DNA of 7,931 bases from a virus (IMGVR_UViG_2778261067_000005:1-7931), one strand, 5' to 3'; counted from the stretch's first letter, positions 1-1,447 are shown. Numbers and translations are program-made. The notes: generated by a model not told the origin, from the letters alone.

Positions 1-621
1 ATGCGCCAGAATGCGCTGTTGCTTGAGCGAAAACCTGCTGTACCGCCATCGAAACGGGCACATACAGGCAGAGTGGCCGTGAAAGAAAGCAATCAGCGAT
101 GGTGCTCTGACGGGTTCGAGTTCTGCTGTGATAACGGAGAGAGACTGCGTGTCACGTTCGCGCTGGACTGCTGTGATCGTGAGGCACTGCACTGGGCGGT
201 CACTACCGGCGGCTTCAACAGTGAAACAGTACAGGACGTCATGCTGGGAGCGGTGGAACGCCGCTTCGGCAACGATCTTCCGTCGTCTCCAGTGGAGTGG
301 CTGACGGATAATGGTTCATGCTACCGGGCTAATGAAACACGCCAGTTCGCCCGGATGTTGGGACTTGAACCGAAGAACACGGCGGTGCGGAGTCCGGAGA
401 GTAACGGAATAGCAGAGAGCTTCGTGAAAACGATAAAGCGTGACTACATCAGTATCATGCCCAAACCAGACGGGTTAACGGCAGCAAAGAACCTTGCAGA
501 GGCGTTCGAGCATTATAACGAATGGCATCCGCATAGTGCGCTGGGTTATCGCTCGCCACGGGAATATCTGCGGCAGCGGGCTTGTAATGGGTTAAGTGAT
601 AACAGATGTCTGGAAATATAG
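1..621 (+). CDS. insD: IS2 transposase OrfB/InsD, C-terminal 206 codons (5' end outside the window; the initial ATG is an internal Met)
   Basis: The translation carries DDE/integrase-core (rve) residues ([26 protein letters not shown]) and ends ...[29 protein letters not shown], which I recognise as the IS2 OrfB C-terminus. Stop TAG at 619-621, just inside the IS2 terminal repeat. Confidence 0.9.
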
Positions 622-632
622 GGGCAAATCCA
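1..632 (+). mobile_element. IS2 insertion sequence, right-hand ~630 bp; the element continues left of the window
   Basis: ORF 1-621 encodes the C-terminal part of the IS2 OrfB/InsD transposase. The sequence 611-632 (TGGAAATATAGGGGCAAATCCA) matches the tip of the IS2 right inverted repeat as I recall it. The boundary at 632 is from memory and could be off by 1-2 bp. Confidence 0.88.
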
Positions 633-1447
633 GCCATCGCCTGGCATCTGATATCGAAATCATGATGCGTGAACGCTTCAGTGTGCTGAACCATATTATC
701 TGGGCGAAGCCGTCCGGACGCTGGAACGGGTGCAACAAGGAAAGCCTGAGGGCGTATTTCCCCGCCACAGAGCGCATTCTGTTCGCGGAACATTATCAGG
801 GGCCGTATCGTCCGAAAGATGCCGGGTATGAGGCGAAGGGCAGGGCACTGAAACAGCATGTGATGGCACCGCTGATTGCTTACTTTCGTGATGCGCGTGC
901 TGCCCTGGGGATAACGGCAAAACAGATAGTGGATGCCACAGGAAAGAAAAACATGGTGTCGCACTGGTTCAGTGCCAGTCAGTGGCAGCTACCGAACGAA
1001 AGCGATTATCTGAAATTACAGGCGCTGTTTGCCCGGGTGGCAGAAGAGAAGCATCAGCGCGGTGAACTGGAAAAGCCCCACCACCAGCTGCTGGAGACGT
1101 ATACTTCACTGAACCGGCAGTATGCGGAACTGCAGAGTGAATATAAGCATCTGCGGCGGTATTTTGGCGTAACTGCGCAGGTGCCGTACACGGATGTGTG
1201 GACGCATAAACCGGTGCAGTACTATCCCGGGAAACATCCGTGCGAAAAACCGGCAGAAATGCTGCAGCAGATAATCAGTGCGAGCAGTCGTCCGGGTGAC
1301 CTGGTTGCAGATTTCTTCATGGGGTCGGGTTCGACAGTCAAAGCTGCGATGGCGCTGGGGCGTCGTGCAACTGGCGTTGAGCTGGAGACTGAACGTTTTG
1401 AGCAGACGGTCAGGGAAGTACAGGATTTAGTCAGTCAGAATGGATGA
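633..1447 (+). pseudogene. Phage DNA methyltransferase (beta-class N6-adenine/N4-cytosine MTase), 5'-truncated by the IS2 insertion
   Basis: ORF 596-1447 runs from inside the IS2 end (its first 12 codons are IS2 sequence) into a methyltransferase reading frame. The C-terminal AdoMet-binding motif DLVADFFMGSGSTVKAA (FxGxG) and a HIIWAKP segment are present. The catalytic DPPY motif that precedes these in beta-class MTases is absent downstream of the IS2 junction. In-frame ATGs at 662 and 665 could give an N-terminally truncated product. Stop TGA at 1445-1447. Confidence 0.7.

Follow-up and report, generated by a model that had tools for sequence, protein, structure and literature searches.

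IS2 interrupts an M.EcoGII-type adenine methyltransferase gene in the late-operon leader of a lambdoid prophage

Structure of the IS2 junction and of the interrupted gene

The viral sequence IMGVR_UViG_2778261067_000005:1-7931 (7,931 nucleotides; hereafter, the window is this whole stretch) starts inside a copy of the insertion sequence (IS) IS2 and, directly past the right end of the element, enters a DNA methyltransferase gene that is followed by tRNA genes, cargo genes and a lysis cassette. In this study, we report the structure of the IS2/methyltransferase junction, the identity of the interrupted gene and the effects predicted for the late genes downstream. The annotation of the window is provided in Table 1.

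Table 1. Features annotated in the window, with positions counted from its first base
Feature	Position	Strand	Basis or remarks
IS2, 3' 632 bp, starting inside orfB	1..632	+	100% megablast identity to IS2 copies
IS2 transposase, C-terminal 206 codons (OrfB part, DDE/rve core), stop at 619-621	1..621	+	Pfam, list of open reading frames
IS2 right inverted repeat (IRR), 41 bp, TTAAGTGATAACAGATGTCTGGAAATATAGGGGCAAATCCA	592..632	+	Equal to the published IRR (PMC3299598)
GCCAT target-site duplication, right-hand copy, 5 bp	633..637	+	L001 against the uninterrupted L002 allele
Predicted M.EcoGII-family beta-class N6-adenine DNA methyltransferase, tail (duplicated His83, codons 84-352, stop); pseudogene	635..1447	+	
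Motif I (AdoMet-binding FxGxG), FMGSG	1316..1330	+	Translation; residues 310-314 of the reconstructed protein
tRNA, anticodon CAT, first late-region gene past the split methyltransferase	1488..1563	+	Met by ARAGORN, Ile by PGAP
tRNA-Arg, anticodon TCG	1573..1649	+	
Lysis cassette, all genes open	5531..7576	+	Holin 5531-5746, endolysin 6579-7112, Rz 7109-7576, Rz1 7329-7514

The transposase portion at the start of the window matched the integrase core profiles PF00665 (rve, E=8.5e-19) and PF13683 (rve_3, E=9.5e-19), and the IRR was equal to the published IS2 sequence at 41 of 41 positions (PMC3299598), which confirms the right end that a preliminary description of this DNA had placed at position 632. 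Directly past the IS2 end, a frame is open from position 635 to a stop codon at 1445-1447. It matched only positions 65-219 of the 221 of the PF01555 (N6_N4_Mtase) profile, and the window therefore lacks the N-terminal portion of this domain. As had been described, this frame retains the S-adenosylmethionine (AdoMet)-binding motif FxGxG, while no DPPY motif was found downstream of position 632.

Positions 1-1447 of the window were matched at 100% identity by four records belonging to two assemblies, those of the E. coli strains CB6837, from a human in Germany, and ECA64, from a dairy product in France. In CB6837 (locus L001), the complete IS2 is 1331 bp in length (L001 11302-12632) and is bounded by imperfect terminal inverted repeats, the IRR of 41 bp and a left inverted repeat (IRL) of 42 bp. 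The latter (L001 11302-11343) agreed with the published IRL at 41 of 42 positions, the exception being position 11, where C is replaced by T. The A6G frameshift site (AAAAAAG) is found at IS2 position 409, and orfA and orfB are joined by a -1 programmed frameshift; the Prokaryotic Genome Annotation Pipeline (PGAP) labels the product as 'IS3-like element IS2 family transposase, programmed frameshift' (WP_088895425.1). The L001 junctions read ...TGTGGCCAT / IS2 / GCCATCGCC..., and the uninterrupted allele of strain DETEC-S792 (locus L002) reads ...TGTGGCCATCGCC... at the same place. Over a longer stretch, the CB6837 sequence is ...CTGTTCTGTGGCCAT / TAGACTGG...(IS2, 1331 bp)...GGGGCAAATCCA / GCCATCGCCTGG... 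and that of DETEC-S792 is ...CTGTTCTGTGGCCATCGCCTGG..., with a single copy of GCCAT as against one on each side of IS2 in CB6837. GCCAT is therefore the 5-bp target-site duplication, and the event was a simple insertion of an ordinary, intact IS2. Its full length, both inverted repeats and the flanking duplication rule out a partial or rearranged element and dispose of the longer rearrangement that had been considered as an alternative.

The missing part of the methyltransferase gene was found directly upstream of IS2 as a head of 83 codons (L001 11053-11301) with DPPY at residues 35-38, which rules out a deletion of this head. In L001, PGAP annotates 11053-11301 as a partial 'DNA methyltransferase, missing C-terminus' and 12635-13447, which corresponds to window positions 635-1447, as a partial 'site-specific DNA-methyltransferase, missing N-terminus'. 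These two partial pseudogenes are annotated around IS2 in both CB6837 and ECA64. When IS2 and one copy of GCCAT were removed in silico, an open reading frame (ORF) of 1059 bp was obtained, encoding a protein of 352 amino acids (aa) with 350/352 identity to the intact allele WP_062851192, over the whole length of which the PF01555 domain extends. The motifs of the reconstructed gene were in the order DPPY (residues 35-38), central target-recognition domain and FMGSG (residues 310-314).

The insertion point lies exactly after codon 83 of 352. The first three bases of IS2 are TAG, an immediate stop for the N-terminal fragment, and the C-terminal fragment (269 aa) lacks motif IV and any obvious ribosome-binding site. 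Judged from these features, the methyltransferase gene has been interrupted by a simple insertion and is inactive, and an active enzyme is predicted to be impossible. The preliminary description had reached the same view on activity. It had also called the gene decapitated, which holds within the window, where the alignment to the intact homologue gave an absence of 83 codons; in CB6837 and ECA64 the head is preserved 1.3 kb upstream across IS2, and the gene is thus split. Both signs of an IS2 insertion which that description had proposed to look for, a 5-bp duplication and the other gene half on the far side of IS2, are present in these two strains.

Comparison of the window with CB6837 showed 100% identity up to about position 7854, with the exception of one single-nucleotide polymorphism (SNP) at 1817, and complete divergence over 7855-7931. 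This SNP and the divergence after 7854 imply that the window comes from a third genome, and therefore that at least three genomes carry the same junction. ECA64 has the left arm and the IS2 junction in common with them and a different late region. From this pattern, the prophage lineage is taken to have swapped late modules after the IS2 insertion.

Relationship of the split gene to the M.EcoGII family

M.EcoGI and M.EcoGII are non-specific N6-adenine methyltransferases encoded by prophages of E. coli O104:H4 C227-11, which methylate adenine in any sequence context, are silent in lysogens and are harmful when constitutively expressed (Murray et al. 2018, PMC5778455). The reconstructed protein was identical to M.EcoGII at 329 of 348 aligned residues (about 94.5%), including all of the first 102, in a comparison with an M.EcoGII sequence that was machine-read from the supplement of PMC11551740 and is likely to contain reading errors (e.g., 'NHHIWA'). 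Among deposited phage genomes, the best match was the methyltransferase of the Stx2 phage 1720a-02, with 99.1% identity to the intact L002 allele; with reference to M.EcoGII, the enzyme of this phage has been described as 'a very similar MTase' (Murray et al. 2018, PMC5778455). Among solved structures, the nearest were distant beta-class methyltransferases, including M.RsrI and CcrM (E about 1e-25 and weaker), and none was strong enough to be M.EcoGII itself. M.EcoGIX, a plasmid-borne and single-strand-specific enzyme, was ruled out as the relative.

By these comparisons, the disrupted gene is an allele of the M.EcoGI/M.EcoGII prophage enzyme family. With M.EcoGII it shares the beta-class order of DPPY, target-recognition domain and FxGxG, and the location in a prophage; close relatives of it lie between Q and the tRNA/stx position both in L002 and in phage 1720a-02. 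The two are also of similar length (349 aa in M.EcoGII, 352 aa in the reconstructed protein). They differ in that the allele of the window, split by IS2 after codon 83, is predicted to encode no active enzyme. The substitutions with respect to M.EcoGII are concentrated in residues 180-275 and, for this reason, the non-specific adenine specificity of the intact form of this allele is presumed by analogy only.

Some part of the 1447-base query formed by window positions 1-1447 was matched in 4789 of 5426 complete E. coli genomes. The methyltransferase gene was present in 1991 of the 5426, with up to seven matching places per genome and around 3300 places in total, and in 1917 of those 1991 genomes a single match covered at least 80% of the gene. 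The allele split by IS2 is rare, since it was found in 2 of the 5426 genomes among the matches listed. An independent IS2 was observed in strain E275a (L003 4302-5632), also 1331 bp in length, with two differences from the CB6837 copy and a target duplication of its own, GTCAC. It is inserted in the same orientation and in the same late-operon leader, downstream of Q and of a kinase/phosphatase gene pair and upstream of a 65-aa ORF and an intact methyltransferase gene. The C-to-T change at IRL position 11 of the CB6837 copy is also a difference from the copy of E275a.

These distributions bear on whether the insertion was selected instead of neutral, that is, whether the host gains from the knockout of a toxic, non-specific adenine methylase whose leaky expression is harmful to the lysogen. 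Constitutive M.EcoGII clones grew slowly and were unstable (PMC5778455), and the IS2 of E275a is a second independent insertion in the same leader, in that case upstream of the methyltransferase. Against this, a single match covers at least 80% of the gene in most of the genomes that carry it, as the counts given above indicate, alleles split at this junction are confined to 2, and two insertions are too few to establish any bias. We consider selection of this kind highly improbable.

Late transcription across the insertion

The prophage of CB6837 is lambdoid, about 49.6 kb in length with IS2 included, which is a packageable size, and is located between potC and potB. It is similar to Stx phages but stx-negative. 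Its int, xis, exo, repressor-region, replication, Q, holin, endolysin, Rz, terminase, portal, protease, capsid and tail genes are intact. The Q gene (L001 8898-9563; PF06323, E=3e-91) ends 1.7 kb upstream of IS2 and is followed by a putative pR' promoter (TTGCAA-17-TATGTT, L001 9571-9599, 8/12 consensus matches) and a putative tR' terminator consisting of a hairpin and a U-run (L001 9650-9680, -11.9 kcal/mol, z=-2.5). Past tR', the leader contains a 237-aa gene without Pfam match and a 65-aa ORF with a strong terminator at its end (L001 10888-10905); then come the methyltransferase head, IS2, the methyltransferase tail, two tRNAs, a tolA-like gene and the STnc100 small RNA (sRNA), and finally a terminator-like hairpin (L001 14644-14665), nanS-p and the lysis cassette. 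The order in phage 1720a-02 is equivalent (Q, small ORF, methyltransferase, stx). The supposition of the preliminary description that Q and the late promoter lie upstream of IS2, with tRNAs, cargo and lysis genes downstream and the transposase co-oriented with them, was therefore correct, the late promoter being the putative pR'.

The explanation that we consider probable is that IS2, by its copy-out/paste-in mechanism, split a gene of the M.EcoGII type and that the late genes are neither blocked nor re-driven by it. According to this explanation, an intact IS2 (1331 bp, with GCCAT) would have been pasted after codon 83 of a methylase gene located in the leader of a Q-dependent late operon. 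Normally, the lysogen would not produce the enzyme; its synthesis would depend on the late transcript, and it would hypermethylate the progeny DNA against restriction. Upon induction, Q-modified RNA polymerase coming from pR' would read through the sense-oriented IS2 as it does through the other terminators of the leader, and expression of the tRNA, cargo and lysis genes would then persist. Given that the enzyme is silent in the lysogen, its loss would leave the lysogen methylome unchanged and make the progeny phage more sensitive to restriction.

The preliminary description had suggested instead that IS2 could be polar on late transcription and give a lysis-defective cryptic prophage. In such a case, Rho-dependent termination within the poorly translated orfB would leave the tRNA, cargo and lysis genes under-expressed. 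IS2 is a classical Rho-dependent polar insertion that silences the downstream gal genes in galEP3 (PMC3737525), and here it is placed between Q/pR' and every late gene. As orfB is mostly translated after the rare -1 frameshift, few ribosomes would cover about 900 nucleotides (nt) of the read-through RNA. In addition, the occurrence of the insertion in at least three genomes with different late regions fits vertical inheritance better than phage spread, and the exact IS2/methyltransferase junction had no match among the IMG/VR viral contigs, a result that is uninformative on phage packaging.

Other features argue against polarity. The sense (+) strand of IS2 was scanned for intrinsic terminators, and none was found. 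The sense RNA contains 389 G and 317 C, with G exceeding C in almost every 100-nt window and a maximum C excess of 3 in any of them, while the C-rich and G-poor composition is that of the antisense RNA. Rho prefers C-rich, G-poor RNA, and the G-rich sense RNA would therefore be a poor substrate for its loading. At least three other terminator-like hairpins precede the lysis genes on the late transcript, the tR'-like one and a strong one upstream of IS2 and another downstream, so that late transcription would rely on processive Q antitermination in any case, and Q-modified polymerase already has to resist these hairpins. Yang and Roberts are said to have found in 1989 that the Q proteins of lambda and phage 82 suppress both Rho-dependent and intrinsic termination, and in the work of Adhya et al. 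of 1974 the polarity of IS elements in gal was reportedly relieved by lambda N. Moreover, the lysis and structural genes of CB6837 are intact, without the decay expected of a long-dead prophage.

Two known systems are of help in weighing these points. In galEP3, IS2 likewise separates a promoter from the operon genes that follow it, at the start of gal, and serves as a reporter of Rho polarity (PMC3737525), but gal is transcribed by unmodified RNA polymerase, whereas here the late promoter would be Q-dependent and its complexes terminator-resistant. In the second system, another element of the IS3 family, IS629, occurs in genes of the lambdoid Stx2a phages of E. coli O157:H7, including the late region downstream of stx2, in phage genomes obtained from ciprofloxacin-induced cultures, which indicates that inducible phages tolerate it in the late operon (PMC4587872). 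In one Stx2a phage type, IS629 lies inside an adenine methyltransferase gene and splits the ORF into two predicted proteins (PMC4587872). The case differs from ours in the IS and in the target genes, and in that those phages came from induced cultures whereas the present prophage has been read from sequence alone. Taken together, polarity of IS2 on the late genes is not supported, the evidence of the sequence leaning against it, and we regard a lysis-defective prophage of this origin as unlikely.

It must be noted that several points weigh against unimpeded late expression as the preferred explanation. The polar behavior of IS2 in gal and the ribosome-free stretch of orfB are among them, and a search of the open-access literature returned no usable paper on which orientation of IS2 (I or II, with respect to the direction of the transposase) is polar. 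The pR' and tR' assignments are putative, made from position and weak consensus only, and the machine-read M.EcoGII sequence may contain errors. Furthermore, the ECA64 prophage is clearly defective for reasons unrelated to IS2: its copy (L004 35598-41447) carries ISEc23, of the IS66 family, between the terminase and capsid genes, and its portal gene is frameshifted.

The opposite effect, a hybrid promoter formed at the IS2 end, had also been raised in the preliminary description. By this mechanism, or by read-out from the element's own promoter, the tRNAs, the tolA-like gene and nanS-p would be constitutively transcribed in the lysogen. The outward -35 of the IRR has given rise to fusion promoters at ampC, acrEF and neo (PMC9330008), and it also forms the Pjunc promoter of the IS2 minicircle, in which a spacer of 17 bp is strictly required. 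Following this spacer rule, and taking the -10 to be where the IRL begins, the outward -35-like hexamer would be TGGAAA at window positions 611-616, inside the IRR. A fusion promoter needs a correctly spaced -10, but the hexamer found in the flank 17 bp past TGGAAA is CCATCG, with 0/6 matches to TATAAT. When -35 hexamers at or before position 632 were paired with -10 hexamers at spacers of 15-19 bp over window positions 560-760, none of the pairs reached 7/12; all pairs scoring at least 7/12 in this interval were located wholly within the methyltransferase flank. A general promoter scan gave nothing at the IS2/methyltransferase junction either. Thus, the IS2 end is not expected to create a new promoter at this junction. 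In the ampC case, as summarized in PMC9330008 (Jaurin and Normark 1983), the same right end had its outward -35 facing the downstream genes, but there a -10 was available in the flanking DNA at 17 bp, which CCATCG does not provide.

With regard to the element's own promoter, no terminator was found between orfB and the IS2 end, and weak transcription from the IRL promoter could exit the element. That left-end promoter drives only step I of transposition, while Pjunc has been called 'more powerful', and the left end contains the sequence to which OrfA binds in its repressor function. Read-out of this kind is possible and is expected to be small. As a whole, constitutive transcription of the downstream genes from IS2 in the lysogen appears quite improbable.

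A further consequence of the sense orientation of IS2 in a Q-antiterminated operon can be envisaged, in which induction would flood the cell with IS2 mRNA during packaging, a transposase burst would be tied to lytic growth, and the phage would serve as a vehicle for IS2. If so, the two insertions in sense orientation, found in related prophages (that of CB6837 type and that of E275a), would indicate that this orientation is tolerated or selected for. The E275a insertion is compatible with such a role, yet two events prove nothing, and we hold it to be rather unlikely.

Returning to the split of an M.EcoGII-type gene with late transcription preserved, its expected phenotype would be found in the progeny phage, whose DNA would be unmethylated or methylated by Dam only and more sensitive to restriction in new hosts. 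Since a relative of M.EcoGII would methylate nearly every adenine and blunt many restriction systems, the lineage has probably lost a broad anti-restriction function, and the progeny phage, if made, would be expected to have a narrower effective host range. In this regard, lysogens do not express their intact M.EcoGI and M.EcoGII (PMC5778455) and, therefore, profiling of the host methylome would probably be uninformative. An IS in the late-operon leader of a prophage resembling those of stx phages does not in itself show that the prophage is dead, since transcription under Q antitermination is expected to cross it. IS2, methylases of the M.EcoGII type and the splitting of prophage late-region genes by IS elements are all already described, and RefSeq annotates both halves of this gene. 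The additions made here are the target duplication, the exact insertion codon, the identification of the gene as an M.EcoGII relative and the negative result for the hybrid promoter. The finding is an ordinary one, and its importance beyond correct annotation is small.

Neighboring genes

The tRNA genes vary among related prophages. There are three of them, with a second Arg, in the loci of DETEC-S792 and E275a, as against the two located at window positions 1488-1649, and an indel between these two distinguishes ECA64 from CB6837. Between the tRNAs and nanS-p, where Stx phages carry stx, the window has a 142-aa ORF (1928-2356, + strand) with the TolA C-terminal domain (PF06519, E=2.9e-22), which belongs to PHROG 5772 (function unknown) and is annotated by PGAP as 'tolA'. 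Its N-terminus resembles a lipoprotein signal (...LASLTTGC). It might be speculated that this protein protects against phages or colicins that depend on TolA, as a decoy or by exclusion. The sRNA family STnc100 of Rfam was matched over its full length between the tolA-like gene and nanS-p (RF02076, 199.9 bits, E=4.6e-47; window 2462-2675, + strand).

The holin, endolysin, Rz and Rz1 products matched lysis families. The gap of around 830 bp between the holin and endolysin genes (window 5750-6578) contains a truncated DUF1327 pseudogene and an 86-aa ORF on the reverse strand (WP_001625288.1), and the L002 prophage is alike in this respect. In the early-right region of CB6837 (L001 4176-7036), queH, a DNA cytosine methyltransferase gene and a type II restriction endonuclease gene of the NgoMIV family were identified; this prophage thus retains a complete restriction-modification system although the orphan adenine methylase of its late operon is broken.

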